Sequence record: KP869112
DNA: 64,000 bases
Strand: one strand, 5' to 3'
Source of the DNA: Escherichia coli O157 typing phage 14
In this document: positions 1-27,713 of the stretch, in pieces
Layout: each line of letters opens with the position of its first letter
Numbering within the stretch: the first letter of the stretch is position 1
Program-made: the position numbers and the translations under genes
Notes under the pieces: model-generated
Database searches by the model: none
The model's input: only the letters and a program-made list of their open reading frames with translations
Told to the model about the DNA's origin: nothing

Positions 1-1440
1 CTCTAAGTCAAAATCTACCTTTCCTGCGTGGAAAGTAGGGGCAGTAATGGTTTTACCCGCCTCAATTTCTTGAGAGGTGGTTATCTTACCACTGGAGTTA
101 ATGCCATTACAGACAAAGTTGACATTAGAGAAGTCTGGCAGCCACCCGGTCACTGTGCCGGATATTTCAAGGTTGTGAAGGTGGGTGGTGCCAGTCCCTG
201 CGGCGTTTAAACTAACATCTCCATTTACCTGCAAGTTTCTGGTAATGTTGCAGTTTTCAGAGTTTGCAGTTGTTGCAGTTAAAGTGGTGGTGGTTAGCTC
301 GGTAATTGTACCTTTATTGGCTGTAAGCCCTTCTCCTTCAAAAGTTGCACGCTCATTGACTCTTAGAGTATTCAGAGCTATATTTTGGATAGAGGCTGTA
401 CCTCGAATAACTACAGACCCGCCAACCTCCAAATCGCCATTTATCAATGCATCACCCGTGCTTTCAATATAGCTAGGGTAGATCATGGTGCCATCGACAG
501 AGTATGTTATCCCTGTAACGGTACCTGTCACCTCAAGGTTCTTAACCCTGGTGGTCCCATCGACCTGCAATGTCGGTTCGGTTGCTGCCTTCATGGCATT
601 ACCACGAATGTACACGTAGTCAAAAAAGTTATTACCCAGACCATCAAAATGCACATCGTTATTATTAGCCACTGGTTTCCCAGAAGTTATAGTGTCAGCT
701 ATAACCCTGTGGGTGGACACTTCATGAGGTTGCAGCTCTGTACTTCTCCAGTCTGCATGCTTAGGATCGCTCCACGCAAAAGTAAGTGTAGAAGTATTTG
801 CCGTGAGGATTAGATTCCTAAAGCGTGCAGTAGAATCTGCCCCATTAACAGGTCCATGTAAGGTAAGGGTGCCACCAACTATAGTGTTAGCGAGTTCTGT
901 AAGACCTTTTACCACCAAAGACCCTACAGTAACTTTCATCCCCTCCATGGCTTTAAATATGCTATCAACATAGTCAACAACAAACTCTGTGTTTGCTATG
1001 GACTCTGACTTATCGTCCATTGGAGGTGTAGGTACTCGTGGGTCACCTTCGAACCTCGGGCTGTTAAGTTTTGCGTAGTATTTTGCCATTACTGCAGAGT
1101 CGGTATATAATCTCCAGTTTGGAGATTGTGAAGGATCTGCTGGCATTCTAACCGGGTTAGATTTTGATGCTGCGGGAGCGTACCACCACTGAGGGCCTGT
1201 GTCCCCTTTAAACTCGTACAGCTGGTTAAAAACTGTTGTGGATGCACCATACGCCCAAGGGATCGGTGGCGTTTTAAAATAAAGGTTGTCAAGCATGGCT
1301 TTTCGTACCGTAGGGATGGTGGTCCCATCCTCTACGACAACTTCATCCACAGCGTTACCGTTGACAACCAAGTGCAAACGTTCAGAATCAACAATTACTT
1401 GATCTACCGCCTGCTCAAAGCTTGTCATGTCTTGCGCCAT
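1..1440 (-). CDS. tail fibre / tailspike protein, 3'-partial (C-terminus lies beyond window start)
   Basis: Manual translation: ATG at 1438-1440 preceded by AAGGAGAAATC; frame stays open to position 1 (480 codons, no stop), so it is absent from the ORF track. Gly/Thr/Asn-rich repeats (LTLHGPVNGADST, LEVTGTVTGITY, LQVNGDVSLNAAGTG) are typical of fibre shafts. Confidence 0.55.
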   Translation of the reverse strand, partial: MAQDMTSFEQAVDQVIVDSERLHLVVNGNAVDEVVVEDGTTIPTVRKAMLDNLYFKTPPIPWAYGASTTVFNQLYEFKGDTGPQWWYAPAASKSNPVRMPADPSQSPNWRLYTDSAVMAKYYAKLNSPRFEGDPRVPTPPMDDKSESIANTEFVVDYVDSIFKAMEGMKVTVGSLVVKGLTELANTIVGGTLTLHGPVNGADSTARFRNLILTANTSTLTFAWSDPKHADWRSTELQPHEVSTHRVIADTITSGKPVANNNDVHFDGLGNNFFDYVYIRGNAMKAATEPTLQVDGTTRVKNLEVTGTVTGITYSVDGTMIYPSYIESTGDALINGDLEVGGSVVIRGTASIQNIALNTLRVNERATFEGEGLTANKGTITELTTTTLTATTANSENCNITRNLQVNGDVSLNAAGTGTTHLHNLEISGTVTGWLPDFSNVNFVCNGINSSGKITTSQEIEAGKTITAPTFHAGKVDFDLE

Positions 1441-1449
1441 GATTTCTCC

Positions 1450-1716
1450 TTAAGCTTTTTGCTCTTCGTTTTTAACGTGGTCAGGGTGCTGGCAACCCCA
1501 CCGGAGCGAGATGAATTTGCTAATAAGCTGGGGGCAAGCTACTGAAGGCGCGTATATCCACGCATACCATTCAGGAAGCGTATCATTATACCCCATATGA
1601 ATAAACACCCCAGTCATCACCGCCATGCCTATGTTCGACCATAGCTTAGTTTGGGACACTTTCGTAGGGTCATCAGATGCCGCAACCAGTCCCCATAAAA
1701 ACTGAGTTAGTTTCAT
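1450..1716 (-). CDS. small membrane protein (hypothetical; holin-like topology not established)
   Basis: ORF track 88 aa; RBS AAGAGGG upstream of ATG; hydrophobic stretch NIGMAVMTGVFIHMGY and charged C-terminus KNEEQKA. Confidence 0.4.
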   Translation of the reverse strand: MKLTQFLWGLVAASDDPTKVSQTKLWSNIGMAVMTGVFIHMGYNDTLPEWYAWIYAPSVACPQLISKFISLRWGCQHPDHVKNEEQKA

Positions 1717-1727
1717 TTACCCTCTTT

Positions 1728-2771
1728 TTAAGCATAAGATATAGTGATCCATTGACCATTTACAAGTTTTTGGATAGCACCTGTCCAGTAATCACCTTGA
1801 TAAGGGTGTTTATAAGCGTAGTTACCAGAGCACATCACATGTCCAGGGTAGACTCTTGACTCTCTGTAGGTGGTTTTGAAACGGTTTGCTATCCTTACAT
1901 CATCAACCCCTCTGCTGGGCATAGGGATAGTAAGGTTACCACTACTGTCTGCGCCGTTACCATTTACCCTGCGGACCACGTTTCTTCCACCAACTGTTGC
2001 ATATTGACCCCTGACTGTTTCATCGTTACAATCAACTCTTCCACCTATTTGAGCGCTTCCGCAGGATTGTTGTCCGTTAACAGTGGCTCTTGGTATCGTG
2101 ACCGCATTGGCATTTGCAGAGGAACTTTTTGCATCGTTGCATTCAAGATTTCCTTGGATGGCCAGTCTTGCACGGTTGGCAGTTATAGCATTGAGCTTCA
2201 TAGCCGAAAACACAGGCTGCCCACCAGAAGGTTGAAATCTCCAACGGAACCCGTCTATTTGGTGAGAAGGATCATCAAGGTCTGTGCCGTCAGCACCACC
2301 GATGTTGTCCATAATCCAGAAATCCATCGTCGTCTTGTCTGGAGTTATGGTGGTATATATTGCCGCATTGTCTGTTGACGCAGATGCAAACTCGATTCTT
2401 TGAAGACCTAAAGTTTGAGTCTGAGTCATTATGTCTCCAGACTTGTCAACATACAGATCGTCCATTTCTTCAGGCGAGTATACATTGAGAACTTGACGTG
2501 CAGCAGCTTTGTCTGGAACGTCTGCTAGATTATTAGTGACCCTTAAGAATCTATTATCCCATCCTGGGACAACATCTTCTGTTAGATGCTTTAACCACGC
2601 AGAAAGCATGTGAAGTTCAAAGTTAACAACTTCACATGCCACTCTTTGTGTCATATCCCAACCTTTCAATCTCTCTTCTTTTTTTGGTTGAGACTTATTC
2701 AACTCTCCCGTATTTTCAAGCACAACATCCTGATTGGCCCAAATATCAAGAGGGATAACTGGTTTAGTCAT
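1728..2771 (-). CDS. tail fibre / receptor-binding protein, paralog of 3786..4826
   Basis: 347 aa; shares N-terminus (PLDIWA vs PLEIWA, KGWD) and C-terminus (QKLVNGQWITISYA vs QKLVNGQWITVNYA) with 3786..4826 while the central region differs; RBS AGGAG. Confidence 0.55.
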   Translation of the reverse strand: MTKPVIPLDIWANQDVVLENTGELNKSQPKKEERLKGWDMTQRVACEVVNFELHMLSAWLKHLTEDVVPGWDNRFLRVTNNLADVPDKAAARQVLNVYSPEEMDDLYVDKSGDIMTQTQTLGLQRIEFASASTDNAAIYTTITPDKTTMDFWIMDNIGGADGTDLDDPSHQIDGFRWRFQPSGGQPVFSAMKLNAITANRARLAIQGNLECNDAKSSSANANAVTIPRATVNGQQSCGSAQIGGRVDCNDETVRGQYATVGGRNVVRRVNGNGADSSGNLTIPMPSRGVDDVRIANRFKTTYRESRVYPGHVMCSGNYAYKHPYQGDYWTGAIQKLVNGQWITISYA

Positions 2772-2814
2772 CGCGTTCTCCTGAGAAAATTCCTTAGGAC
2801 TATTTTAACACTTT

Positions 2815-2850
2815 AGAGAACAAAATGCAAGAACGGAGTCCTTTCCGTTC
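2815..2850 (-). terminator. rho-independent terminator downstream of 2861..3175
   Basis: Stem GAACGGA/TCCGTTC (2831-2850) followed on the minus strand by UUGCAUUUUGUUCUC. Confidence 0.45.
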
Positions 2851-2860
2851 TGACCTTTGT

Positions 2861-3175
2861 TTACCTTTTACTATGCTCTACGAGCATGTGCAAAATCTTT
2901 TGTACATCAGCTCGGATACCGGAGACATCTGTCCTGACATCCTGCTTAAGGTCGTTAATATCGGCCTCTAGCTTGCTTAACCGGGTCTCGATAACGGAAT
3001 CAAGTTTATCTTTTGTAACCATACTGTTTTTCACTAAGATGAGGTCTTTCTCCAGTTCATCCAACCTCTTGGAAATGCCTTTCCATTTGGTGTGCCACTG
3101 GTTGAAAGCCCATACACAGATCGGGACAACGGTACCCATGCAGATACCGTACAATGCCGCCAAATCCAACTCCAC
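2861..3175 (-). CDS. membrane-anchored coiled-coil protein (hypothetical)
   Basis: 104 aa; N-terminal hydrophobic segment ALYGICMGTVVPICVWAF followed by heptad-like charged region. Confidence 0.4.
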   Translation of the reverse strand: MELDLAALYGICMGTVVPICVWAFNQWHTKWKGISKRLDELEKDLILVKNSMVTKDKLDSVIETRLSKLEADINDLKQDVRTDVSGIRADVQKILHMLVEHSKR

Positions 3176-3186
3176 AACACCTCCTC

Positions 3187-3771
3187 TTAGAGGGTAGGTC
3201 GCTCCGGGAAGAAAATGTCAGGGGCTTTAGATGTATCTATTTCAAGAAGTTTTACCCTGTACATTTTCAAATCTCTGATGTTACGTTTCTGGTCATCAGT
3301 AAGATCATATTCAAGGTCAATCATGTCTTGATAGGCACCAATTCTAGCAGTAGCCCAAGCAAGTTCTGTCTCTATGACACCCTCTGCCTGTTGAACAAAG
3401 AATTCATTATCTGTGACAAATTCATCACCAACTAAACGCAAAGCGTCGTGGTGAAGCATAATGTTTTCTGGTACCTCTTCTTTTTTGGCGATAACCACAC
3501 GAAGACCTGGAGCAGGCCATAAGGCATCAGGTTCTTCTGTAGATGTCTTAAGAATTCCCTTCTCGTCAACAAGTAGGAAGATACAACCCGGATTTTCTTG
3601 TCGCAATGTTCGTGACTGCACATACCAATCGCCATCATCATTACGTAAAAAATACCCAGTGTATGCTGTGTAATCCTCAACCTCTTGAGGGGTCAGCTCC
3701 TTGGTTTCCTTGTTGGTGCGGTATTCGCCAGATCCCGGTTGGTAAAGTTTAAACTCTTGAAGTATTTTCAT
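3187..3771 (-). CDS. tail fibre assembly chaperone (Tfa family)
   Basis: C-terminus DLKMYRVKLLEIDTSKAPDIFFPERP matches the conserved Tfa C-terminal motif of lambda Tfa ([24 protein letters not shown], recalled from memory); sits immediately downstream of fibre gene 3786..4826. Confidence 0.75.
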   Translation of the reverse strand: MKILQEFKLYQPGSGEYRTNKETKELTPQEVEDYTAYTGYFLRNDDGDWYVQSRTLRQENPGCIFLLVDEKGILKTSTEEPDALWPAPGLRVVIAKKEEVPENIMLHHDALRLVGDEFVTDNEFFVQQAEGVIETELAWATARIGAYQDMIDLEYDLTDDQKRNIRDLKMYRVKLLEIDTSKAPDIFFPERPTL

Positions 3772-3785
3772 GCTAGTCCTCCGAT

Positions 3786-4826
3786 CTATGCATAATTAAC
3801 AGTGATCCATTGACCATTTACAAGTTTTTGTAAAGGTCCTGCCCAGTAGGTTGAACCACGCATCTCTTTTTTGTCACCGAAATGCCAGCCTGTGACAACG
3901 TAGCCGTTGCGGATTGGAGATTCAGAAACTCCGTCCACAAGTCTTGCACCGATTCTGATGTCTTGCACACCTGTCTGCGGGATAGTGATCGTTACATCAC
4001 CGTTACCGTTAGCCGTCACTCCATTCACGGAGCGCACCACATTTCTGTTACCGACAACACAGTGCTGGCTTCTTACAACCATACTGTCACAACTTGCACC
4101 ACCATTAACATATACTGACCCAGCCGTCAACTGACTAGCCACATTACAGTTGGTGAATGTTGCTGTATTGCTGATAGTAAGGTTATTGCACCTCATGTTA
4201 TCGACAACTTCAACATTGCCTACCACTTTCAACAGCGCACGATTAGCCGTGATCGCGTTAAGGTACATCAAAGTGAACTCTGGATTAATATCCGGCTGAA
4301 TTGGCTGGAATCTCCAACGAAACGCATCTACCGTAGATGTACCACCATCATCAAACGACCCAGCATTATCACTTAACCCAAAGTCGAGAGTTGTCTTATC
4401 CGGGCCAATAGTTGTCTCTATCCAAGCCTTATCTGTCTCGGCAGCTTTAAAGTTGATACGTTGCAAACCCAATGGGCCTGTCATTGTATCACCTGTAACT
4501 TTTACATACCTGGCGTCTGCCTCTTCCTTAGTAATAATCCCAAGGTTTCTACGGGCAACAGGAATGTTCAAAAGATCACTCAAGTTATTATCACGTACCA
4601 GATAACGGCCTTCTTGAGCGGGGATCTGCTCGTCAGCAATGTATTTTGCCCAAGTTCCGAGCATATTGAAAATATAGTTAAGTTCTTCACATGAGGGCTT
4701 TTGACCAAGATCCCAACCTTTTCTCCACAAATCCTCAATCGGGCGTAGCCTGTTCTGTCTGTGGGTGTTAGGCAGAACCTGATCCTCCTCTGCCCAAATC
4801 TCTAATGGAAAACTAGGTTTTGACAT
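3786..4826 (-). CDS. tail fibre / receptor-binding protein
   Basis: 346 aa, paralog of 1728..2771, followed by a Tfa chaperone gene. Confidence 0.6.
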   Translation of the reverse strand: MSKPSFPLEIWAEEDQVLPNTHRQNRLRPIEDLWRKGWDLGQKPSCEELNYIFNMLGTWAKYIADEQIPAQEGRYLVRDNNLSDLLNIPVARRNLGIITKEEADARYVKVTGDTMTGPLGLQRINFKAAETDKAWIETTIGPDKTTLDFGLSDNAGSFDDGGTSTVDAFRWRFQPIQPDINPEFTLMYLNAITANRALLKVVGNVEVVDNMRCNNLTISNTATFTNCNVASQLTAGSVYVNGGASCDSMVVRSQHCVVGNRNVVRSVNGVTANGNGDVTITIPQTGVQDIRIGARLVDGVSESPIRNGYVVTGWHFGDKKEMRGSTYWAGPLQKLVNGQWITVNYA

Positions 4827-4838
4827 TTTATCTCCTGA

Positions 4839-6911
4839 TTATGAGAAGTCTGGCGGGACAACATCCTCTACATACCCTTTCAGAGCAACCTGCCCCATAT
4901 GAAGCACGGTAGAATCTCTAGCGGTAACAGTGATGCTGTCAGACATTACTTGCGGGTATGCCCACACATACTGTTTTACCTCAGGGTATCTATACTCTAT
5001 AGTTGCCATGTTTCCGCAAATACATCTCCATAAAAATTCTTGGTAATTCCTAGTTGGGTCGTATCCATATACCGGAGCAAGCTCTTTACTAGGAACGAAC
5101 CCTGCAAGGTATTGTATTTCAGACGGTTGCCAACCTAACTTAACGATAGGTATGTTTACAGACTCTTTTGCCTTTTCAATACCTCCCTGCATCACCCAAT
5201 CGTAGCACTCGGTGCAGAAGAAATCAAGAGCACCTGCTTCTTTTTTATATTGGTCGGCAAGGTTCAGCTTTTGCGTAAGCTCGGTTTCCATAATAGTTGG
5301 GAAAAACAGTAAAGCTGTCATCTGAGCTGATGCAGCGTGTGCCTTTATTGCCTTTGAAATAGCCGCAATACGAGCGCCAAGCTTACCACGACAAAATGCT
5401 ACATACTTGTCGTAAACACCGCCAGTTTTAGGATCGTCAATAGTCCCAATATCTAATGCATACTCACCTGTCTCATCATAAAACGCCTGCTTTGTAGGGT
5501 AATCATAAATACAAGGTCTACGAGTATCGGTATTGTACCACCACCACGGTTCACCAACCTGCATAATCACTGGCAGGTTGTTTCTCATAGCGGCTGATGC
5601 AAAATTCTTAAATACTGCAGTAAGGAAATTCATACCCTCTTCAATGGTTGGAGACAGGAGGTAGCTACAGGGTGTATACCCTGTTTTAGCGTAGTTATCG
5701 TTCCAGTCTCTTTGGGTCCATTCCAACGGGCAGGCATCGCTGAAAAGCTCAAAACTTACAGATTGCATAACGTCGAAGTTATGTCGTTTGGCATTGTACA
5801 TAAAATCATCGTGCCATTTATAAGCTGCAGCGTTTAGCGCCCCTGTTCTGTTTATAGACCATTGGGTTCCTGACCATGTGTAGTCATAATAATGACTCAT
5901 ACCAACATAATGGTTTATGGTTCCGGTATAGCCCAGACGCTTGATATTGTTCAACACCCTTAAAGGAGATACGTTCCACATATCGTCATATGCGGTGCAG
6001 ATCCCAACGTCGTGCTCTTTAACCTGAATATTGTTAAGTTGCATCATTTTCCAGCCTGTGTCTGGCTGGAGCAGATCTAGGCGCAACTCACACTCTACAT
6101 TTTCCGTTCTCGGGTCTGTGCTATTACTTACCCAGTCTTTAGGCATAAGCGGTATTAAAATCCTTCTCACCTGTCGAGGATCAACACCCATCATGTTGTT
6201 GTTCTGATCCATCCCGACGCAGTCCTCGAAATCAATATGAATCTCTGCAACATTCTTATCCTCTGAGATGCTGACAGCATATTGAGCTAAAGGAACATAG
6301 ATGATTGTGCCATCAACAAGGTCTACAGTCATAATCATCTTTTCAGGGGTGGAGAAGTTGCTGGCATTGGTTATTGACATTCTGAACCAAAGCTTGGTGT
6401 TTCTCATCTCATAGTGATCATCAAACCCAATACCGAAATGGTCATACTTGTCAACTGTTTCCCAAATGCACCCAGCCATACCTCCATATGTTCTTGACAC
6501 TAAACGGTTAATACAACAGTTGTTATCTGCAACAATACAGGTACTTTCAGTCTGCTGAGTAGTTGTAACCCAATACCTTGGGTGAAACATTCTCTCCTCA
6601 ACAGTATCCCAAGATATCCTGTCAAGATTCTCATCTGAAACTATTGTACATTTCGCCCTTTGTGTTCCAATCATCACCCCTTGAGATTTTGATGAAAACT
6701 CCATAAAGAAGCTTCTTGGCAACCTGTTGGGTAATTTGTCAACAATTTCCACGGGGATCTCAATACTGGTTGCCCCAATTGGGATAGTTACATCGCCCTC
6801 AACATGATTATAATCCCTACCAGGAACGGCAGTATCCTGAACTGTTCGGTAATGAAACTGTGCAGCCATTGTAGAGTAATCACGGTAAGGTTTAAAAACA
6901 GCTGTTGCCAT
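4839..6911 (-). CDS. large baseplate/tail-associated protein, possible carbohydrate-active domain (unverified)
   Basis: 690 aa; embedded between baseplate and fibre genes; Trp/Tyr-rich central region (VIMQVGEPWWWYNTD) suggests a barrel-type enzymatic fold, but no family was recognised with confidence. Confidence 0.4.
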   Translation of the reverse strand: MATAVFKPYRDYSTMAAQFHYRTVQDTAVPGRDYNHVEGDVTIPIGATSIEIPVEIVDKLPNRLPRSFFMEFSSKSQGVMIGTQRAKCTIVSDENLDRISWDTVEERMFHPRYWVTTTQQTESTCIVADNNCCINRLVSRTYGGMAGCIWETVDKYDHFGIGFDDHYEMRNTKLWFRMSITNASNFSTPEKMIMTVDLVDGTIIYVPLAQYAVSISEDKNVAEIHIDFEDCVGMDQNNNMMGVDPRQVRRILIPLMPKDWVSNSTDPRTENVECELRLDLLQPDTGWKMMQLNNIQVKEHDVGICTAYDDMWNVSPLRVLNNIKRLGYTGTINHYVGMSHYYDYTWSGTQWSINRTGALNAAAYKWHDDFMYNAKRHNFDVMQSVSFELFSDACPLEWTQRDWNDNYAKTGYTPCSYLLSPTIEEGMNFLTAVFKNFASAAMRNNLPVIMQVGEPWWWYNTDTRRPCIYDYPTKQAFYDETGEYALDIGTIDDPKTGGVYDKYVAFCRGKLGARIAAISKAIKAHAASAQMTALLFFPTIMETELTQKLNLADQYKKEAGALDFFCTECYDWVMQGGIEKAKESVNIPIVKLGWQPSEIQYLAGFVPSKELAPVYGYDPTRNYQEFLWRCICGNMATIEYRYPEVKQYVWAYPQVMSDSITVTARDSTVLHMGQVALKGYVEDVVPPDFS

Positions 6912-7600
6912 TAACCCTCCTGTCTAGTTGCGTTTACTGTAATACTTTCACAATAAATGGTTGTGGTGTCCCAATCAGGTCTTACGTCAGGAACATATAG
7001 CAAAGTAGCCAGCCCACCAACTCCGAATTGGTTTTCTTCCCACACTGATCCGAAGCCAAGAGCTGTAGAGTCCCCTTCAAAACCAAAAGCTTGCCCTTGC
7101 GATTCAGTAAGACGCAAATGACAAGGCAATGGTAGCATATCTAAGATCTGATCGATAGACTGCAATATGTCAAAGCAAGTTTTTCTAATATTTATGTCAA
7201 ACCTGAAGTTGTCTCCTTTCCACGTATTGAAATTGTCTCTTCCGAACAATTGTCGCAAGGTGGAGATGACATCTTCGCGAGTCCCGCCCCCAGATGCTGC
7301 TGCGGCCTGCTGAATAATTAGTGTGGCACGAAAATCAGCATCTGAAAGTCCATTCCTAAGAATACCAAGTTGATTACCAACTTCGTCAAGGTATCTTCCG
7401 CTGGCATTGTTAAGCAATCTTCCTTCAGCCAAACCTACCAGCATTTTATCAACATCCTCCAACCTTTTAAGGTACACGGTTAAGAATGTGACCAAATTAA
7501 CCTTCTCAGCCAGAAAATCTCCAGGCAGGTAGTCAAGACCTCCCTGAACAAAATCTGGCAGAGTGTGGATGTGGTTAACATCCGACTTAATCTCTGCCAT
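6911..7600 (-). CDS. baseplate-associated protein (position equivalent to P2 gpI / Mu gp48)
   Basis: 229 aa, directly downstream of the baseplate J-like gene with start/stop overlap. Confidence 0.4.
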   Translation of the reverse strand: MAEIKSDVNHIHTLPDFVQGGLDYLPGDFLAEKVNLVTFLTVYLKRLEDVDKMLVGLAEGRLLNNASGRYLDEVGNQLGILRNGLSDADFRATLIIQQAAAASGGGTREDVISTLRQLFGRDNFNTWKGDNFRFDINIRKTCFDILQSIDQILDMLPLPCHLRLTESQGQAFGFEGDSTALGFGSVWEENQFGVGGLATLLYVPDVRPDWDTTTIYCESITVNATRQEG

Positions 7601-7611
7601 ATCTCGCCGCC

Positions 7612-9102
7612 TTAAATAGTTTGTTGGAAAGTTATATTACTTTCGTCGAGGTCAAACACCTCGGTCATGTTCGCAACAATATCGTTTGTAGTGTAAGCTT
7701 CATCAGAAGCTCCTACTGGTTTAACTTGAATTACCAGTCTATTAAATCTACCTATCGACACAGCAGCGGATGCAGCACCGACCAATTGGATATTGTACAA
7801 CGTATCTGCAACATCCAGTCCGTTAACAACCTGCAAAAGAGCCTCTACAATGGCATCTTTTTCGGTTGTGGAAAGCGCAGCGCCGGAATAGGTAATTCTT
7901 ACATCTAGGCGGTAGGTATTTGCCTTGGAGTAATAAATTCTTTCAGTTTGACCGTCAGATGTAGTGACATCGTAGAAAATATTACCATAAGTCCTGTTCG
8001 TACAGGCTATAGTTTGGTAAAGTGCTTGGCAAATGTCCTCCGTTGCACCACCAAACACAACCACTTGGAACTTGTAAGGAGGTATACCTTTAGCATCAGT
8101 TTTATCAGTGTTGTTGGAGAACACTCTCACTTTCTCAACACCTTTCACCTCGCTTACAGCGCTAAGGATTGCAGGACGGGTAGCCTTCGATGTTAACTGT
8201 TTTGTGCTGGAAGCTCTTAAGCGATACTCGGAATCTTTCTCAACATCCCTGCCCTCGTTGAATCTTTCTCGGTTGGTAAGCTTGATAAATCCGCTGGGAG
8301 TAGGTGACATTGTTGTCACGGTCTCTGCCTCTCTTGACAGCTCACCAGCCTCGTTAGCTATAACATCTAGGGTGATAGTTCTTTCCCCTACAATCGGGGA
8401 TACTCTGAAATCTACCCTGCTATTAAGTCCAACTTGATCAAGATTAGAATTGTACCCTATCCACAACGTTCCTGTCAACATATCGATCTGAATCAGATCG
8501 TCGTTCAATAGAGTTGTATTATCGACAATGAATTGCTTAATCTCTCCGTAAAAGCTTGGCAGATCAGAAGAGTCCAGAGCCTTATCTGTTAAAACCAGAC
8601 TTTTTGTTTTGATACTTCCATCTGTCTGGTTGGTAATTTGAAAGTTGTATTTCCCAATTCTTAGATCTGGAGCGTTTATCCTGTGAGCAATAAGATTCCC
8701 TGCTACCTGCACGTCATTGCTAAGAACAAAGTTCCCACTGTCTAATGTGTAAGTTTTGGAATCATAAATCATGTTGTACGGCACAGTTGTGTTGATCGTC
8801 AACTGGCAGGTACCTGATGATTTAGAACGGCCTCTTCGGTAAATACCCTGTCTTCCAAGAAGTTCATCTAGGTAAATACCTTCTGCCCCATACAGCGTCT
8901 GCGATGCGTATACAGATGCTGCCATAAGAATAAGTTGATACTCTCGCTCGTTGAAGATAGTGGTCAGCTTATCTGCAACGGAGTTACTCTGTACGTTGAA
9001 GTTTTCGCCAAAAGCACGGATCAGGCTTTGCTTAGTTTCAACGATTAGGTCATTTAGGGTTGGTATAACGAAACCAGCCTCTGTCAATCCATACTTAGCC
9101 AC
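7612..9102 (-). CDS. baseplate J-like protein (Mu gp47 / P2 gpJ / T4 gp6 family)
   Basis: 496 aa; N-terminus MAKYGLTEAGFVIPTLNDL resembles the LTEAGF motif at the start of baseplate J-like proteins (from memory); GTG start with RBS GGAGGAG. Confidence 0.6.
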   Translation of the reverse strand: MAKYGLTEAGFVIPTLNDLIVETKQSLIRAFGENFNVQSNSVADKLTTIFNEREYQLILMAASVYASQTLYGAEGIYLDELLGRQGIYRRGRSKSSGTCQLTINTTVPYNMIYDSKTYTLDSGNFVLSNDVQVAGNLIAHRINAPDLRIGKYNFQITNQTDGSIKTKSLVLTDKALDSSDLPSFYGEIKQFIVDNTTLLNDDLIQIDMLTGTLWIGYNSNLDQVGLNSRVDFRVSPIVGERTITLDVIANEAGELSREAETVTTMSPTPSGFIKLTNRERFNEGRDVEKDSEYRLRASSTKQLTSKATRPAILSAVSEVKGVEKVRVFSNNTDKTDAKGIPPYKFQVVVFGGATEDICQALYQTIACTNRTYGNIFYDVTTSDGQTERIYYSKANTYRLDVRITYSGAALSTTEKDAIVEALLQVVNGLDVADTLYNIQLVGAASAAVSIGRFNRLVIQVKPVGASDEAYTTNDIVANMTEVFDLDESNITFQQTI

Positions 9103-18253: not shown

Positions 18254-20851
18254 TTAAAGGTACAATCCACGGTATTGAGCATAAAGGCCCAGACCGCGAA
18301 GGATTTCGCCAGAGTGATAGCCCACCGGATCAGAAACTGCCCAGCAGCCGTTTAAAACATTATCCCCATTGATGAAGTGGTGCTTTTGCAGTAGCTTCAT
18401 ACAGGCTTCTACAACAATGTCTATTTGAGGTATTGTCTCTGAATACCCGCACAGACCTAGCCAGCAGCAACCTGCAAGCCATTCACCTACCACCCACATC
18501 CTGTCCCCTCTGTCTTGATAAGAATATCCCCCAGAGGTGTTAAAGTCTGTAGGCAGATTTCCTGAATGAGATGACTGGAATCTGTTGAGGAACCATGCCC
18601 ATTTCTGGCAGAACAGGAATAATCTTTCATCAACAGGTTCTTTATGTTTCTTGAGCTCATAGATTGTGCGGCACGCAGCAACAAAAGATCTTGACTGGAG
18701 CTTAGAGTTATCTACCATCTCCCACCAACCAGTCAGCCCTTCATTACCTCTCTGCCATACGTAACGCGAGGCAACTGGACCCTCTGTCTTAAATGTATTA
18801 TTATACCAGACTTGAGCGTCATACAGAAAGCCTATTGTATTTGACAATCTATGGCGATCTATGTTTTCTGCACCCATGCAGTATACTGCTGGGTATTGCA
18901 TGCCAGGGTAGGGCCAATTTGGCTTTTCCTCTAAGAGATAGTTTTCCTTATCTATCACCTTTCCGGCAGGGAACACACCCGGTGTGTGCCTGTATGCGCC
19001 TTGCTTGTAGTTTCTGACATAGCAATCACCAACCTTGGCGGTTGATTCTGTCTTGCTTGCCATCCATACGCTAAACCATATTAGATAAGCATCCCTATCT
19101 GCAATATAAAATTGCGGCAGTGTGTTGACGCAATATAGATCAAACAAGCCATTACCTATCTGCCTGTCGCTTAGGCTGAAATCTACAGAGGTGAGCCCTT
19201 TAGGATTAGCAAAGAAAGGTTTAATCTCTTCTTCGGTGTGATGAGGTTGTGTCGGATCTAGTTTGAAATCTCCTAGAGTAAGAGTTTCTGTTATCCATTG
19301 TCCATTAGTGGCATATAGATCAGCATACCATAACCACCTATCTTTGTCAAGAAATTTGACCCTTACCATCTCATCATCTGATCGATAAGTTACTGAGTTT
19401 AAAGAAATCTCTCTCCCAAAATTGAAAGTTACTTTACCTCTTGCTATATTACAACGGGTGAAGTTGTCAGAGTGGTTGTAAATGTCGGTATCGTACTGCA
19501 TACTGACACTCGCGCCACCGCTTACGGCAATGTTTTCCTCTTTAGGTAAGAGATACGGATTACCGTCTTTACCAACCACCTCTACGAAATCAGTAACCTT
19601 GGCAACTATTTCTGTTACCTCTGCCCCTCCAAAAGGAACCCCTATCCTGTACTGTTTTTTGTTATTGTTGCCATCATTAAGGATGAAATGTGGCTGGAAC
19701 AGAACCCCTTCTCCTCCGAAATTCATAACAATTTCAGCATCTCTGCCTATTTTGTATGTAGTCCCTTTTTGAATTATTTCGCAAGGCTGGCGTGCGTTCA
19801 TTCTAAAGTTGATATACCCGTCACTGTCTCTGCTCATGACAGGAACTGTTCCTGCAACAAGACAAGTACCGTCTGTAAACGGTGCCTTAATCAACGTGGT
19901 CTTTCTAAACAGCTTGTCGTAGGCGTTTATATCACTGAAATTAAGCAACTTGTTGTAAGACTGTTTAAATGCGGTGTAATACTTTTCCTCACCTGTCAAG
20001 GTGTAGAGTTGATAACAAGCGTCACACCACATTTCTTCCCCGTCCAACTCTGGGGCCTGATTATCTGCAACCACGTTTATAGGATTTACAATTACAGGGG
20101 ATCCAGCAGGTATCACCGATCCACCCTGCTCTTGAGGTAATCTTACACAATAGGTCACCTTGTGGCTTCCTGTAACACCCTTATCTTGTAATTGGATTGT
20201 GCCGAACTCTATAGACGTATGCCCACTGTCGGCTATGCTCCCGTTAGCCCAATAGCGGTTACCATCCCATGCTATGTACCACTCAACCCACCAACTTAAT
20301 CCGGATGTTGTCCAATCTGGGTTAGCATCTGTGCCACCGTAAACATCAGAGTCTACAGTGTTTCTTCCTAACACACCGTTATACGCTTGGAATGCCTTGT
20401 CCAGGTATTCCCCCCATGTCGGAGATCCAGCTGGGATTTTTCCTCTACCGTTGGTAAAAGACACCACCACATCTTTAAACCCACCGTGTGATGGAACCCC
20501 ATCTGTGGATAGAGGGTAGTGGGACAATCTTTGCATTTTACTTTCTACGGCATATGCACCCAGAAGATGACTATTGTAAGCTTCCCAAGCATCTTTTGCC
20601 CTATCCAGATAGAAATCGCTTTTCGATGCCCTGTATGCTTCAATGTATCCCAGAATCAACACAGCTTGGGACTCATGCATTGCCCAATCGTTATTTATCT
20701 TATTACCTGCCCACCCTGCAGCTATAAGACCATCAGGGTTTACTAGCTTATTTTGTGTAGGTGTGTTGGTAATACCTGTGTTGTTATCGAGGCACTTCCT
20801 GTGCCCCTCAATCATCTGAAATACGTTATCAATGTTGTGTTGAATACGCAT
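18254..20851 (-). CDS. tailspike-like protein with putative polysaccharide-degrading domain; lacks the shared N-terminal anchor
   Basis: 865 aa; own RBS AGGAG; helix-rich Trp-containing segments (WAMHESQAVLILGYIEAY, MWVVGEWLAGCCWLGL) suggest an alpha/alpha-toroid-like enzyme, unverified. Confidence 0.45.
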   Translation of the reverse strand: MRIQHNIDNVFQMIEGHRKCLDNNTGITNTPTQNKLVNPDGLIAAGWAGNKINNDWAMHESQAVLILGYIEAYRASKSDFYLDRAKDAWEAYNSHLLGAYAVESKMQRLSHYPLSTDGVPSHGGFKDVVVSFTNGRGKIPAGSPTWGEYLDKAFQAYNGVLGRNTVDSDVYGGTDANPDWTTSGLSWWVEWYIAWDGNRYWANGSIADSGHTSIEFGTIQLQDKGVTGSHKVTYCVRLPQEQGGSVIPAGSPVIVNPINVVADNQAPELDGEEMWCDACYQLYTLTGEEKYYTAFKQSYNKLLNFSDINAYDKLFRKTTLIKAPFTDGTCLVAGTVPVMSRDSDGYINFRMNARQPCEIIQKGTTYKIGRDAEIVMNFGGEGVLFQPHFILNDGNNNKKQYRIGVPFGGAEVTEIVAKVTDFVEVVGKDGNPYLLPKEENIAVSGGASVSMQYDTDIYNHSDNFTRCNIARGKVTFNFGREISLNSVTYRSDDEMVRVKFLDKDRWLWYADLYATNGQWITETLTLGDFKLDPTQPHHTEEEIKPFFANPKGLTSVDFSLSDRQIGNGLFDLYCVNTLPQFYIADRDAYLIWFSVWMASKTESTAKVGDCYVRNYKQGAYRHTPGVFPAGKVIDKENYLLEEKPNWPYPGMQYPAVYCMGAENIDRHRLSNTIGFLYDAQVWYNNTFKTEGPVASRYVWQRGNEGLTGWWEMVDNSKLQSRSFVAACRTIYELKKHKEPVDERLFLFCQKWAWFLNRFQSSHSGNLPTDFNTSGGYSYQDRGDRMWVVGEWLAGCCWLGLCGYSETIPQIDIVVEACMKLLQKHHFINGDNVLNGCWAVSDPVGYHSGEILRGLGLYAQYRGLYL

Positions 20852-20852
20852 C

Positions 20853-21521
20853 TTAGATAGCTCCTGCGATAATCAGTGCCCCGTACCAAGTTAACCCGTT
20901 GTCGTAGGTTTCCAACTTGAAAATATCTGTTGCACCAGCTGTAAATGTTAGGATAGGATCTCTTCCGTAGGACCATTTAACATTACCAGGCCAATAGACT
21001 TTGTTGCCGCCAGAGGTCTGAGTAATGCATACGGTTATAGTTCTCGCCACCCCTTCAAGACCTTCTGTTTGATTTTCAAAAGAGATTGTGGTATTTGAAG
21101 TTAGTCGAACCTTAAAGGTATCCGCAACTTCAAGATCCATATCAAGCTGACCACCGATAGATCCGTAATCAACTATTCTGCCAGAAGAAGTTGCAGCAAG
21201 CTCACCAAAAACAGACCAGGCGTTTGCAGACACACCCCCAGCACCCTCTACAGTGGAGTCTGGGAGGATTATTTTAGGATAATCCCCGTTCCACGTGTAG
21301 TAGCGCTTAGTTTCTGGATCATAAGCAAAGTCCTTCTTGCTCTTAAGATAACCACCCTCTGTGAAATAGACTATTTTAGTAATGCTGAGATCGTTGACAA
21401 CATCATCAATCTTAGCCTTTCTTGTCCCATCAGTCTGGTTGACAACCAAGAAGTCATCACTCAGGACTGTTTCTGCATCTTCAAGATCTGGAATTGGTAT
21501 TGTAGGATAAGCTACAGCCAT
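20853..21521 (-). CDS. tail fibre/spike adaptor protein carrying the shared N-terminal anchor domain
   Basis: 222 aa; N-terminus (DDFLVVNQTDGTRKAKIDDVV ... FTEGGYLKSKKDFAYDPE) is paralogous to the N-terminus of the long fibre 14400..18218 (DDYLVVQQPDLTRRVKIGDVV ... FKEGGKLNGPMDFAYFEE). Confidence 0.5.
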   Translation of the reverse strand: MAVAYPTIPIPDLEDAETVLSDDFLVVNQTDGTRKAKIDDVVNDLSITKIVYFTEGGYLKSKKDFAYDPETKRYYTWNGDYPKIILPDSTVEGAGGVSANAWSVFGELAATSSGRIVDYGSIGGQLDMDLEVADTFKVRLTSNTTISFENQTEGLEGVARTITVCITQTSGGNKVYWPGNVKWSYGRDPILTFTAGATDIFKLETYDNGLTWYGALIIAGAI

Positions 21522-21530
21522 GATTTCTCC

Positions 21531-22247
21531 TTAGTTAACATCAATAGCACGACCAGACTGGTTGGCAATAGCCTCATCATTGGAGGTAGCAATAACACCA
21601 GAGTATTCGCGCTCATCTGGAGCAAGCGTCCAGGTATTGCGGTTAATGGTTTGTTCTGCCTCAGTCATCAGCAGATCTTTATCCTGAGTCAACAGAGAGC
21701 CTACAGGGATCGGGTTTTCCATCTCAGGACCAGCATACTGGTTCCACCATGTGGCATCTCCGGTTCTAGGCAATCTGAAGTTGATCAGGTAGTACAGTTT
21801 ATTAGCCCACTTAATCCAACCTTCATCATCACAGAGAGAGGTTGTCCCAGAATCAGGCTGTGGGTAGGTAAACTGATCAAGACCTACAAAAGCCAGCCTT
21901 ACAATCTCGTTCTCTTTGGTAACAACCTCAAAGAACGCTTGGTATGTTCTCGATCTTCGATCCATGGTAGACTGGAAGTTTACGATGTTTAGCACATCCG
22001 GCTCTTGTCTTGCCACTTCCATAATCTTGTTATCAAGAACAGTCTTCATGACCTTCTTACTGAGAAAGTCCATATAAGGGAAGCCAAACAACTCGTCAAA
22101 GTACCAGCTCCCCTTCCACGTATTAAACCTCATCCACAAGCGCTGGCGTAGACTTACCTGGTTTGAATCTATCAACTCAATACCTTTGTCTATCGCCAAA
22201 TCGCCTGTCTGTGGGTCCATCAATATATCACTATAAAGCGTAGCCAT
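21531..22247 (-). CDS. baseplate protein (hypothetical)
   Basis: 238 aa ORF between the spike and fibre genes. Confidence 0.4.
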   Translation of the reverse strand: MATLYSDILMDPQTGDLAIDKGIELIDSNQVSLRQRLWMRFNTWKGSWYFDELFGFPYMDFLSKKVMKTVLDNKIMEVARQEPDVLNIVNFQSTMDRRSRTYQAFFEVVTKENEIVRLAFVGLDQFTYPQPDSGTTSLCDDEGWIKWANKLYYLINFRLPRTGDATWWNQYAGPEMENPIPVGSLLTQDKDLLMTEAEQTINRNTWTLAPDEREYSGVIATSNDEAIANQSGRAIDVN

Positions 22248-22259
22248 GAAAGCCCTCTA

Positions 22260-22937
22260 TTAGTGCGGTCCACTTGTCTCGCCATCAGGGCAAGAGTGGG
22301 TATGACCTTTATATTCTGCATAGAATGAATCCAAATCCACGCCAGCAGCAGTTATAATTCTACCAGATGGGTCTATTGTAGCACCATTCATTCTGATATT
22401 CCCATCCACAGCAGCTCGCAAATTGGCAGCCCCGTTAGTGAAAGAAAACTCCCCGCTGCTGTCGCACCGTAATGTCCCACCAGGTGTTTGAAGCTCAAAA
22501 TCGCCAGAAGGTGTCAGTTTAAAATAAACCCTATCATTCCATAACTCTACGTTATCAGGATCGATCTGTAAGGCGTTTGAGTCTGAATGAACAGAGGTGA
22601 TTGCCCACCCCGGAAACAGGCCGTGAGTTTGTTGATCGTCGTTATTGTTTTCATTTCTCTCTGAAAACTGCAATCCTACAACATCCCCAGCCTTAATAGG
22701 AAGTGTTAGCCTTGCCTTTCCGCTGTTTGCAGACATCACCTGAATTGGAACGTCATAGATAAGAGGGTATCTCTCCACATCCCCGTCATCAAACGTGGTT
22801 TCAGCAATTGGCTGCACGGCTGCAGAAGGGATACTGTAGTCTACACTGACAACTCTGGCCCTGATACTGGTGTGGTAGTCCCTCATTATTTTTTCTATGA
22901 AGGATCTTACAGCAGCATCTTTCCTATTTATTGCCAT
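22260..22937 (-). CDS. baseplate central spike protein (gpV-like) with His-rich apex
   Basis: 225 aa; C-terminal YKGHTHSCPDGETSGPH resembles the metal-binding HxH apex of P2 gpV-type spikes; position after hub-like genes. Confidence 0.5.
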   Translation of the reverse strand: MAINRKDAAVRSFIEKIMRDYHTSIRARVVSVDYSIPSAAVQPIAETTFDDGDVERYPLIYDVPIQVMSANSGKARLTLPIKAGDVVGLQFSERNENNNDDQQTHGLFPGWAITSVHSDSNALQIDPDNVELWNDRVYFKLTPSGDFELQTPGGTLRCDSSGEFSFTNGAANLRAAVDGNIRMNGATIDPSGRIITAAGVDLDSFYAEYKGHTHSCPDGETSGPH

Positions 22938-23941
22938 TATACCTCCTCAGTTTTGTCAACAACTCCACCCACTGTTTCCCCAAGGCCAAGCTCTGTGATG
23001 TAATCACCTCCTTCTATGGTTCCTTTATGATGCACCGTGATCACCTTATAGAAGCCTGTATATTGCTTGCTTTTAAGATAAATAGTGGACTCTGGGAGGA
23101 TAGCTCCGTTAAGGCATGTGGTTACAGTAAGGCCAACATCCTCTCTCGGGTTTTTCTTTTTCTTTTTAGATGTCGAACCACCTTTGGCAGCAGCTTTAGC
23201 TTTTCGTTTTTTAGCAGGTTCTGGATTTTTAGGGGTAGGAGATCCGTGCATCCCAGACTCTGCACTTATTTCAAACACAGAGTCTTTGAACCTTTTTCCA
23301 ACCTTGGTCCAATACAAAGCCCCATCCTGAACGCTAAATGTTGAGTTGGTCAGCCTTGCAAACCTGCGGAGGTTCTCTGCAGTGTTTCCAGAGAAAGCCA
23401 TAGAGTATTGCAAAGTCTGGTTTCCAAAACCAACAACCCTACCTTTTGGCAAGTTCATATCCTTCAGTAGGTCATTAAGCACAGAGTTCAGAGGTGTGCC
23501 TTTCTGATAAGATCTTGTGCTTTGGCACTTAATGATGTTCTCAGTGCCATCCCCAAAGATGAACTTAGTTTTTCTGGTAGGACCTTCCCATCTGTCTTCA
23601 ACAAACTCCACAGTTCCGGAGAATATCAACTGGTTCTCATTATCATAGCCAGCTTCAAACATAACTGCAAGGGCATCAGCCTGATGCATATCTAAGTAGT
23701 TAACTGTATCGTCAGACAGGTTGTAAACTGTCACATAACCTTTGTTTGGCTCTTTGGTATTGTCCTTTTGTATGTCAAACTCTATATTGGCAGCACCAGT
23801 GTCTGAGCTAACTTCATAAACTCCGGAATCACTCTCCCCTTTCTTTTCAACAGATTTTGGGATATTGGTTTTTGATTTGCCGCCATGTTCTACAGGACGA
23901 CCAAACAATAATCGCCATGTTCTACGTCTGTACTCTGCCAT
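22937..23941 (-). CDS. baseplate hub / tail protein (hypothetical)
   Basis: 334 aa; Lys-rich internal linker (KKRKAKAAAKGGSTSKKKKK). Confidence 0.4.
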   Translation of the reverse strand: MAEYRRRTWRLLFGRPVEHGGKSKTNIPKSVEKKGESDSGVYEVSSDTGAANIEFDIQKDNTKEPNKGYVTVYNLSDDTVNYLDMHQADALAVMFEAGYDNENQLIFSGTVEFVEDRWEGPTRKTKFIFGDGTENIIKCQSTRSYQKGTPLNSVLNDLLKDMNLPKGRVVGFGNQTLQYSMAFSGNTAENLRRFARLTNSTFSVQDGALYWTKVGKRFKDSVFEISAESGMHGSPTPKNPEPAKKRKAKAAAKGGSTSKKKKKNPREDVGLTVTTCLNGAILPESTIYLKSKQYTGFYKVITVHHKGTIEGGDYITELGLGETVGGVVDKTEEV

Positions 23942-24321
23942 TATTCTAACCCTTGCTGTTCCTTGTAAAGATCAACCGGGGTGCCGTATACAAGTTGTAG
24001 CTCAGATCTCGCCCCAAGGTTATATCTTCCAACCCTGCCCCAATATTGATCGTCTTTAAACGACAGCGCCATCAGTCTACCTTTCGGTAAATCATCTCTG
24101 TAATGCAGTCCGTCTAAAATATCTTGACAAGCTGTTACTTTTCTGGTTACTAAAGGGCTGTCACCTACTGGACCAAGAGATAACCACCATGACTCATCCC
24201 TCTCATTCCATTGCATACGCATTTCATACGTTTCATTGTCTAAAACAACACGCATGGTTTGATCAGGAAAGCCGTCAATGTCCCACACAAAGGTGATTAT
24301 GCACCAATCTTTAAGCTCCAT
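23941..24321 (-). CDS. tail protein (hypothetical)
   Basis: 126 aa, overlapping start/stop with neighbours. Confidence 0.4.
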   Translation of the reverse strand: MELKDWCIITFVWDIDGFPDQTMRVVLDNETYEMRMQWNERDESWWLSLGPVGDSPLVTRKVTACQDILDGLHYRDDLPKGRLMALSFKDDQYWGRVGRYNLGARSELQLVYGTPVDLYKEQQGLE

Positions 24322-24333
24322 TATACGCTCCCC

Positions 24334-25218
24334 TTATTTCCCGTTAACTTTGTTGTAGTTTCCCTGCTCAGATGGGACTATGGTAGAAGGTCTTCCATAT
24401 TCCTGATAATACCAATCCGCAGCCGATTGGGTAACACCGTTTTCATCTGTCCACATCATAGATTTGTATGGCTGCCACTCCTCTGCAGCGTTTGTGGATG
24501 CAGTGTCTGCGAATGCTCCTGTGTCCCTCTTGTTACCTACGTTACTACCATTCTTACAGTCGTTGACAGCGCCTTTTTGTTGGGTCTTGCCTACTTTCTT
24601 AGGATTGCTGTATACAGTTGCATTAACAACCTTATTCAAGTAGAATGTGCGGAACTCTGTAAGTTCTACATCAAACACCATTGCAGCGCCTTCACCAACA
24701 GACTTGTTGGCAGAAAGACTGGTTATGATGTAGTTCTCAAGAAGTCTCTCCTCGGTAACCAAAGAAACCAACTGTCGCTTATTGATAATCTCAGTCAAAG
24801 CCTCCAATGCAGCGCCTGGTCGCATAGATGCTGCAGGGTTTTTAGAGTCAGTATTCCTATCAATGTAGTTTTGCTCATAGATTATGTGTGGGGATGTATT
24901 TACCCTACCAGTAAAAGAAAATACACCATCTTTAATTACGGCGTGGTCTGACAGGGTAGATTTATCTTCCACCGCAAACCCAGTCTTATCAACAGAATGT
25001 TTGAAAGAGTAATTCTCAACCTGATCGAAGATAATGGCAAGATCGTTAGTAAAGTTTTTACCCTTCATCTCCGTATTGCGACCACCATAGTTAAGACCGC
25101 TGACAAACATAGTGTACTTTACATCGCTTTCAGTTTGCTGCTCTGCCTTTTCAGCCTTTGGAGATTTAACCTCTTGAGGCTTGTACAGGTCTTTTTCATC
25201 AACTATATTGCTTGGCAT
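24334..25218 (-). CDS. tail protein downstream of tape measure (hypothetical)
   Basis: 294 aa ORF immediately after the tape measure gene. Confidence 0.4.
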   Translation of the reverse strand: MPSNIVDEKDLYKPQEVKSPKAEKAEQQTESDVKYTMFVSGLNYGGRNTEMKGKNFTNDLAIIFDQVENYSFKHSVDKTGFAVEDKSTLSDHAVIKDGVFSFTGRVNTSPHIIYEQNYIDRNTDSKNPAASMRPGAALEALTEIINKRQLVSLVTEERLLENYIITSLSANKSVGEGAAMVFDVELTEFRTFYLNKVVNATVYSNPKKVGKTQQKGAVNDCKNGSNVGNKRDTGAFADTASTNAAEEWQPYKSMMWTDENGVTQSAADWYYQEYGRPSTIVPSEQGNYNKVNGK

Positions 25219-25280
25219 AACCTCTCCAGGACACTCCTATACCATCTAGATATTGTATCATAAAATAGCCGTTTTTACAA

Positions 25281-25311
25281 CACCGATAAAATAAAGGGGG
25301 CCGGAGCCCCC
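25281..25311 (-). terminator. rho-independent terminator downstream of the tape measure gene
   Basis: Hairpin GGGGGC-CGGA-GCCCCC followed on the minus strand by UUUAUUUUAUCGG. Confidence 0.6.
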
Positions 25312-25322
25312 TGCACAGCTTA

Positions 25323-27659: not shown

Positions 27660-27665
27660 GGTTTC

Positions 27666-27708
27666 CTCATAATAAAAAGGGCCAGATCCCAGAAAAGGAA
27701 TCCGGCCC
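27666..27708 (-). terminator. terminator-like hairpin downstream of the chaperone frameshift ORF
   Basis: GGGCC...GGCCC stem (plus 27679-27708) followed on the minus strand by UUUUUAUUAUGAG. Confidence 0.45.
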
Positions 27709-27713
27709 TTAGA

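Follow-up and report, generated by a model that had tools for sequence, protein, structure and literature searches.

The 64,000-nucleotide (nt) stretch of Escherichia coli O157 typing phage 14 analyzed here (sequence record KP869112; hereafter, the window) carries near its start two paralogous short tail fiber (STF) genes, rv5_gp033 (gp33) and rv5_gp030 (gp30), together with rv5_gp032 (gp32), a gene for a Tfa-type tail fiber assembly chaperone. Positions 1-9000 of the window are 99.3% identical over their full length to positions 19488-28484 of Escherichia phage V5/rV5 (NC_011041.1) and 98-99% identical to about 110 further Vequintavirus genomes; the region is the short-tail-fiber module of rV5, genus Vequintavirus.

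Gene organization of the locus

Every gene of the fiber locus lies on the minus strand and corresponds one to one to the rV5 annotation. The series opens with gp36 (7612-9102), a Baseplate_J wedge protein, followed by gp35 (6911-7600) and gp34 (4839-6911), the latter with Calx-beta and NCTSP TIM-barrel domains. Next come gp33, STF paralog 1 (3786..4826; 346 amino acids [aa]), the chaperone gp32 (3187..3771; 194 aa), and rv5_gp031 (gp31; 2861..3175), a conserved 104-aa protein with an N-terminal transmembrane segment and a coiled coil. These are followed by gp30, STF paralog 2 (1728..2771; 347 aa), rv5_gp029 (gp29; 1450..1716), a conserved 88-aa protein that databases label a membrane protein, and rv5_gp028 (gp28; 1..1440), a different fiber protein, of which the N-terminal 480 of 581 aa are present before the gene continues past the window edge. 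The ancestral position is that of gp33, immediately ahead of the chaperone gene and behind the wedge genes, from which gp34 separates it as in phage Av-05; gp30 lies instead between gp31 and gp29.

An initial annotation, made from the sequence alone, had described this region as a cassette of at least three distal fiber genes that includes two receptor-binding paralogs. Two intact minus-strand open reading frames (ORFs) do lie at exactly the positions given above for gp33 and gp30, and beyond the 88-aa ORF a third, different fiber gene starts at 1440 and leaves the window, as that annotation had it; the gp31 ORF, which separates the chaperone gene from the second paralog, had been overlooked.

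Paralogy and integrity of gp33 and gp30

The paralogy of gp33 and gp30 extends over their full length (BLASTP, 153/356 identities, or 43%; E = 4e-94), and the C termini of the two proteins read QKLVNGQWITVNYA and QKLVNGQWITISYA, matching the motif quoted in the initial annotation. Its description of conserved termini around a divergent center was borne out at the extreme C terminus, where 12 of the last 14 residues are identical, and failed elsewhere: near-identity is limited to this final stretch, identity is patchy throughout the alignment, and the best-conserved block is central (columns 121-150, 70% identity, LGLQRI...TTI.PDKTT.DF). Identity amounts to 50% over the first 30 residues and is lowest in columns 46-90, 211-255, and 301-335; FRWRFQP, LNAITANRA, and VG.RNVVR.VNG form additional conserved islands. 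Among the tblastn matches of gp33 are phi92-like and Phapecoctavirus records. The STFs of phi92-like phages have only N- and C-terminal parts in common with gp33 (38% covered, in two pieces), and the pattern of conserved ends with a different middle therefore fits the comparison between genera, not that between the rV5 paralogs.

Codons were compared across six genomes (the window, MaxBurger, V5, FV3, ECP32, and Pr121LW), with the ratio of nonsynonymous to synonymous substitution rates (dN/dS) taken only where dS exceeded 0.04. The possibility that one paralog is a pseudogene, named at the outset as one that would overturn the initial reading, did not hold, as both are intact and under purifying selection in this set. 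All five genes from gp29 to gp33 are intact in 6/6 genomes, and dN/dS amounts to 0.01-0.09 for gp33 and 0.04-0.09 for gp30, at dS values of up to 0.31-0.35 against FV3. Full-length, single-piece tblastn matches to gp33 at 95% identity or above were found in 115 records, while gp30 matched 116 records at 90% identity or above, at two places per record; both paralogs thus occur at full length in about 115 Vequintavirus genomes. Neither gp33 nor gp30 is a pseudogene.

Domain architecture and family membership

Both proteins match the entire profile of phrog_4465, "tail fiber protein" (positions 1-342/342; 8.2e-171 for gp33 and 4.1e-166 for gp30), and Pfam and NCBIfam scans returned no family for either. 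In PDB sequence searches, the STF of Pectobacterium phage phiTE (9CUY) matched residues 1-108 of gp33 (5.4e-19) and residues 1-83 of gp30 (1.3e-9), and a family profile built from 36 members found the same protein (9CUY/9MJN) at 4.3e-35. Residues that are invariant in the N termini of the family, including P4, P7, W11, A12, L18, N25, P29, G37, and D39, are kept in gp30. At the opposite end, the tip of the Mu tail fiber S (5YVQ) matched residues 286-343 of gp33 (1e-5) and was found by the family profile at 4.7e-14, along with the S/S' chimera 8JU3; a single-sequence PDB search with gp30 gave no match to Mu S. An AlphaFold2 (AF2) monomer model of gp30 was of low confidence (predicted local distance difference test score [pLDDT], 63.6; predicted template modeling score [pTM], 0.35), which we attribute to the trimeric state expected of a fiber. 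Compared with the PDB by Foldseek, this low-confidence model gave a sole significant match, chain 5YVQ_A of the Mu fiber-chaperone complex (E = 1.8e-8; probability, 1.00).

From these similarities, gp33 and gp30 are predicted to be anciently duplicated fibers of the Mu gpS/P2 gpH type, trimeric by homology. Each is predicted to consist of a domain spanning the N-terminal 90-110 or so residues, a shaft, and a C-terminal tip of some 60 residues that is homologous to the tip with which Mu S binds its receptor. The tip module of gp33 (residues 287-344) also occurs, at about 58% identity, in fibers of unrelated Salmonella and Escherichia phages of about 52 kb (SPLA2, BEC1-17, yarpen, and birk).

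Cryo-electron microscopy (cryo-EM) of phiTE has identified STF residues 3-92 as a joint that anchors the trimeric fiber on wedge protein 1 (PMC11972413), and in phi92, gp147 forms fiber III, of which six trimers sit on the wedge protein gp145 and which has been proposed as the irreversible binder (PMC13450770). The N-terminal wedge-docking domains of phiTE gp236 and phi92 gp147 are homologous to that of gp33 and gp30, and their genes occupy the same place behind the wedge genes as gp33 does, with a Tfa gene and then a small gene of 104-113 aa next in line. Because their N termini are of this baseplate-docking kind, gp33 and gp30 would be short fibers fixed directly to the baseplate; they are fiber genes, as first described, but "distal" is a misnomer. 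Unlike rV5, with its two copies, phiTE and phi92 have one STF copy, and the phiTE protein differs further in being 554 aa long with a coiled coil and an Ig-like head. With Mu S/U (5YVQ) and P2 gpH/gpG, the rV5 system shares the homologous tip and a Caudo_TAP chaperone gene, here immediately 3' of gp33. It differs from them in a docking domain of the Vequintavirinae type and in that gp30 lacks a chaperone gene of its own.

The proposed role resembles that of T4 gp12, a baseplate-attached fiber that binds the lipopolysaccharide (LPS) core irreversibly, and HHpred similarity of the rV5 fibers to gp12 was reported in 2013 (PMC3606486). No T4 gp12 chain appeared among the PDB matches (single sequences at E <= 1; profile at E <= 0.01) or in the Foldseek list. 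The chaperone of T4 gp12 is gp57A, not a Tfa. The relation of gp33 and gp30 to T4 gp12 is one of functional analogy only, not of family membership.

The Tfa-type chaperone gp32

That the first paralog is followed by a Tfa-like chaperone was confirmed: residues 121-192 of gp32 match the Pfam family Caudo_TAP (PF02413; 8.5e-12; 45.8 bits at a cutoff of 22.1), and the protein also matches phrog_136 (2.4e-36). When the PDB was searched with gp32 by phmmer, no match to Mu U was credible, so the assignment rests on Pfam and PHROGs. No second Tfa gene was found in the fiber locus among ORFs or by Pfam or PHROGs, and gp30 has none directly downstream.

Tfa proteins are modular, with a variable N-terminal domain that grips the fiber tip and a conserved C-terminal domain that trimerizes (PMC9608196). 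Given one Tfa gene in the locus and the grip of Tfa proteins on the tip, we infer that both gp33 and gp30 are clients of gp32 and that their shared C terminus reflects the shared chaperone. Relative to the Tfa proteins of single-fiber genera, the gp32-type proteins of the two-fiber lineages, namely, rV5 and the lineages L012 and L011 introduced below, carry some 20 or more extra residues, inserted into the fiber-binding N-terminal domain.

Evolutionary context of the second copy

A single STF is found in relatives belonging to Avunavirus, Seunavirus, Mydovirus, and Justusliebigvirus and in uncultured contigs. The order STF, Tfa, 104-aa gene, 157-aa gene, 87- to 91-aa gene, and gp28-like fiber is that of Av-05 (Avunavirus), GAP31 and Salmonella phage R7 (both Seunavirus-like), KpS8 (Mydovirus), and an uncultured Seunavirus-like contig; the 157-aa gene encodes a polytopic membrane protein (PF26221, Phage_phiTE_239). 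In the phi92-like phage PaulScherrer, the order is STF, Tfa, 113-aa gene, and lateral fiber, and both the 157-aa gene and a second STF are missing from two uncultured lineages with a single STF. In rV5, gp30 sits exactly between the 104-aa and 88-aa genes, the slot that the 157-aa gene takes in some relatives; tblastn detected no remnant of the 157-aa gene in the 64-kb window (best E, 0.55). Two divergent lineages from public assemblies also have the two-STF arrangement, L012 (gp30-like protein 78% identical) and L011 (about 49%), and the duplication is therefore older than the split of these lineages, not recent. We propose that the second STF copy arose in the Vequintavirus lineage; the slot that it takes, flanked by the 104-aa and 88-aa genes, is variable.

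Compared domain by domain, the fibers form a mosaic. For the N-terminal docking domain, the gp33 clade goes with the single-copy STFs (53-56% identity), and the gp30 clade stands apart, with 38-40% identity to gp33 and 62-80% within the clade. In domain-wise trees of the shaft, gp30 and gp33 form sister clades. The gp33 tip is like the tips of Av-05 and phi92-like phages (56-57%), that of gp30 in rV5 and L012 is an outlier, and the two L011 paralogs have the same tip.

Gene conversion at the fiber tips

At conserved degenerate codons, the rV5 pair uses the same codon in only 36% of cases, and gp33 and gp30 are therefore saturated at synonymous sites. The last ten such codons are nevertheless all identical, in an exact 30-nt run encoding QKLVNGQWIT that was located by repeat search at the 3' end of gp30 (1743..1772) and again at the 3' end of gp33 (3801..3830). 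Against the 36% background, a shuffle test gave p = 0.0017 for this identity, and the product of the codon-match probabilities, calculated by hand, is about 1e-4. At the nucleotide level the box occurs in Vequintavirus only, mostly twice per record. Strict nucleotide constraint as its cause was ruled out by synonymous changes in FV3 and ECP32, and FV3 carries the same AAT-to-AAC change within the box of both paralogs. We read the box as a short gene-conversion tract in rV5.

Over roughly their last 57 residues, the L011 paralogs share 93% identity at the protein level and 83-88% at the DNA level, versus about 40% elsewhere; depending on the window chosen, the tips are 87-93% identical in amino acids, and the N termini are 37% identical. 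The extreme C terminus is concerted within genomes, reading NYA/SYA in rV5 and L012 and QTL/QTL in L011. As judged by these comparisons, the fiber tips have undergone gene conversion between paralogs. The initial suggestion of recent module exchange thus survives for the C-terminal tip only; for the pair as a whole, synonymous saturation and a duplication that predates the L011/L012 split speak against it.

Expression of the locus

The sole long intergenic gap in the locus, 89 nt between gp31 and gp30, contains a hairpin, a promoter motif, and a Shine-Dalgarno sequence. The terminator-like hairpin, followed by TTGCATTTTG (2830..2851, minus strand), came from a consensus scan and is a weak, pattern-level call; in FV3 and ECP32, its stem has C..G in place of A..T, a compensatory change. 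The late-promoter-like element P030 (2787..2823, minus strand) contains the core GTGTTAAAATA (about 2801-2811), which 8/8 genomes compared, including the divergent L011 and L012, conserve as GTG[T/C]TAAAATA; motifs of this class are enriched in the window, with 48 matches versus 26 expected. P030 has been listed as a putative late promoter (Table S4 of PMC3606486). An AGGAGA Shine-Dalgarno sequence lies between P030 and the gp30 start codon. With the hairpin and P030 ahead of gp30, gp33, gp32, and gp31 would therefore end the P036 unit, which runs from gp36 to gp31, and gp30 would open a unit of gp30, gp29, and gp28. That the hairpin closes the gp36-to-gp31 transcription unit is a weak suggestion from the pattern.

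Functional interpretation

The gp30/gp33 pair is already in the literature. Kropinski et al. noted in 2013 that the two proteins are similar in size and 42.3% identical and suggested two LPS chemotypes (PMC3606486), and Maffei et al. described in 2021 two paralogous STFs with a chaperone, homologous to Mu GpS/GpU and to the single STF of phi92-like phages, found low allelic variation in gp30 and gp33, and linked the pair to an LPS outer-core terminal receptor (PMC8594841). Since the pair, its Mu S/U homology, and the dual-LPS idea were thus published in 2013 and 2021, ours is a rediscovery of the same genes, at 99-100% protein identity to V5-group records (V5 gp33 is 99.4% identical to that of the window and gp30 of phage Murica 100% identical to its counterpart here). 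The present analysis adds the domain-wise mosaic, the gene conversion at the tips, the synteny of the second copy, and a discrepancy in a mass spectrometry (MS) supplement described below.

Dual receptor specificity of the pair, already proposed in 2013 (PMC3606486), is plausible. The reading that we prefer, which we put at about an even chance, is that both paralogs are structural short fibers folded by gp32, with two maintained tip types, that of gp33 probably directed at the region of outer-core glucose I and that of gp30 probably at a second core epitope. In this scenario, the N-terminal domain of gp33 and gp30 would dock the fiber on the baseplate wedge protein, as in phiTE and phi92. The variable N-terminal domain of gp32 would grip the tip and its conserved C-terminal domain drive trimerization, with the single chaperone serving both paralogs; the near-identical extreme C terminus, matched in each genome by gene conversion, may be the element that permits this. 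Both fibers would be on the virion, pointing downward, as irreversible LPS-core binders that trigger contraction.

The target of Mu S is LPS core glucose (PMC8594841), and the rV5-like phage LL12 requires outer-core glucose I (PMC7229145), with efficiencies of plating of 5e-6 on waaG, 0.02 on waaP, and less than 1e-8 on waaC and waaF mutants (PMC7229145). The gp33 tip would probably recognize the conserved glucose I region because its type is that of single-STF relatives with the same waaG dependence, and the divergent gp30 tip would probably recognize a second core epitope. We consider it possible, though rather unlikely, that the arrangement goes further: each virion would then have two LPS-core-binding fiber sets and one chaperone, the N-terminal domains having diverged for different or alternating baseplate positions, and the extreme C terminus, on which the shared chaperone acts, would be kept matched within each genome by recurrent conversion, leaving the tip proper able either to diverge (rV5) or to become homogenized (L011).

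The presence of at least one STF on the virion is supported by cryo-EM of relatives: in the RBPseg study of 2025, an STF-class model was fitted into 7-9.5 Å maps of Bas54 and Bas49, in which the paralogs are not told apart (PMC12143355). For rV5 itself, the 2013 main text states that whole-virion MS detected gp30, gp32, and gp33 (PMC3606486).

Several points weigh against the preferred reading. The DTASelect table that supplements the 2013 MS data (Additional file 5 of PMC3606486) holds 19 loci, and gp30, gp32, and gp33 are absent from it; 1/19 of these loci was placed by mapping, at about 36.7-37.3 kb of the window. On Bas54, cryo-EM reports one STF density only (PMC12143355). The AF2 model behind the Foldseek match of gp30 is, as noted, of low confidence. 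Single-STF phi92-like phages have the same waaC/waaG dependence (PMC8594841), and a second specificity is therefore not required for the K-12 phenotypes. Both L011 paralogs bear the same tip, and two different tips are therefore not constant to the pair. Finally, rV5 gp36 equals in length its homologues in 4/5 single-fiber relatives, where there is one docking site per wedge; the docking of a second fiber set is the main difficulty of the preferred reading. Apart from the fiber proteins, gp36, gp42, gp43, gp45, and gp49 are likewise stated in the 2013 main text to have been detected by MS and are absent from the 19-locus table (PMC3606486).

The alternative that fares best, though still improbable, is that the two copies are redundant and bind the same LPS-core receptor, providing more fiber dosage or two docking variants for two positions on the baseplate and leaving the receptor range as it is. 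The low allelic variation of both paralogs within the genus, seen in the published survey (PMC8594841) and in our own comparisons, would fit redundancy, as would the equal waaC/waaG dependence of single-fiber relatives (PMC8594841) and the L011 pair, with near-identical tips on differing N termini. In rV5 and L012, however, the paralog tips are just 43-48% identical, and each tip type is 92-93% conserved between rV5 and L012, which points to two maintained tip types. The graded phenotypes of LL12 are also compatible with more than one core determinant.

We regard as less probable again, and doubtful, a co-option of gp30, in which gp33 alone is the baseplate STF and gp30 acts elsewhere, perhaps as a component or adaptor in the lateral fiber assembly of gp28/gp27, with which it would be co-transcribed. 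The place of gp30 at the head of a gp30-gp29-gp28 unit with its own late promoter would suit such a role, and so would the divergence of the gp30-clade N-terminal domain from gp33 and the single-copy STFs (38-40% versus 53-56%), the single STF density on Bas54 (PMC12143355), and a gp36 no longer than its homologues in most single-fiber relatives. Nevertheless, the phiTE docking domain can still be matched in gp30, the N terminus of gp30 has the residues that are invariant across the family, and, by the Foldseek match of its AF2 model, the protein retains a Mu-S-like tip.

Mixed trimers of gp30 and gp33, occupying a single set of six docking sites, are very unlikely. One chaperone with two clients, a common extreme C terminus at which trimerization nucleates, and a single STF density class in cryo-EM (PMC12143355) could be accommodated by heterotrimers, but 43% identity and shaft indels make a regular mixed beta-helix unlikely, and the two genes lie in different transcription units. 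We know of no precedent among Mu/P2-type fibers.

Switchable expression of two tips, as in the invertible S/S'-U/U' segments of Mu (Gin) and P1 (Cin), can be dismissed almost entirely: the tips are Mu-S-like and Mu does use two alternative tips, obtaining two specificities by DNA inversion at one locus, whereas in rV5 both genes are complete, lie in the same orientation, and have their own start codons, and an invertible segment was ruled out, with no inverted repeats flanking the 3' ends and no invertase gene in the locus (the sole inverted repeat in positions 1-7000 is a 17-nt, 82% pair within gp34).

If the further-reaching and rather unlikely reading, with two diverged fiber sets per virion folded by one chaperone, is true, the locus would represent a compact means of bivalent irreversible adsorption that needs neither a second chaperone nor an invertible segment. 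rV5-like phages are among the commonest E. coli phage isolates and are used in O157 typing, biocontrol, and therapy cocktails; identifying the fiber behind the irreversible LPS-core contact, and establishing whether the pair confers two specificities, would help to predict routes of resistance (waaG, waaP, and core-type variation) and guide host-range engineering.

Neighboring genes and other features of the window

The initial annotation had placed a small membrane protein after the second paralog. The 88-aa ORF is there; its membrane character was not borne out by hydropathy, as the best 19-residue Kyte-Doolittle mean of gp29 is 1.05, under the transmembrane threshold. This protein matches phrog_1322 (1.1e-32), is homologous to 87- to 91-aa genes of Av-05, GAP31, and KpS8, and shows at most 1 nonsynonymous difference per comparison versus 4-11 synonymous ones. 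The overlooked gp31 has a transmembrane segment at residues 3-24 by hydropathy, matches phrog_5345, and is homologous to 104-aa genes of the same three phages; compared with FV3 and ECP32, it shows 2 nonsynonymous versus 11-15 synonymous differences. For gp31, gp29, and the 157-aa protein of relatives, searches of Pfam (E <= 5), PHROGs, NCBIfam, and PADLOC gave nothing informative. Across the Vequintavirinae, small conserved genes under strong purifying selection sit within the fiber operon, namely, the 104-aa gp31, the 157-aa PF26221 protein, and the 87- to 91-aa gp29; among relatives, the set was located at 6138-7201 in L006, 6150-7219 in L008, and 6036-7109 in L010. A role of such genes in lysis or superinfection is conceivable.

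The third fiber gene product, gp28, matches phrog_4549 (9e-202) and is homologous to phiTE gp241. Its homologues carry PF26208/PF26209 (Phage_phiTE_241_N/C) in precomputed annotations; a Pfam scan of the 480-aa fragment found no family, probably because these two entries postdate the release scanned.

Elsewhere in the window, a cluster of seven tRNA genes lies on the minus strand at 41776-42588 (Pro, Met, Thr, Ser, Tyr, and Arg), and includes, at 42021-42119, a 99-nt "tRNA-???" called by ARAGORN, the anticodon of which has four bases. Some 17 GenBank records of the MG0656xx series, named "Campylobacter phage" with C. jejuni as the stated host, are 98-99% identical to rV5-like coliphages across the fiber locus, which suggests mislabeled hosts or contaminating coliphages.

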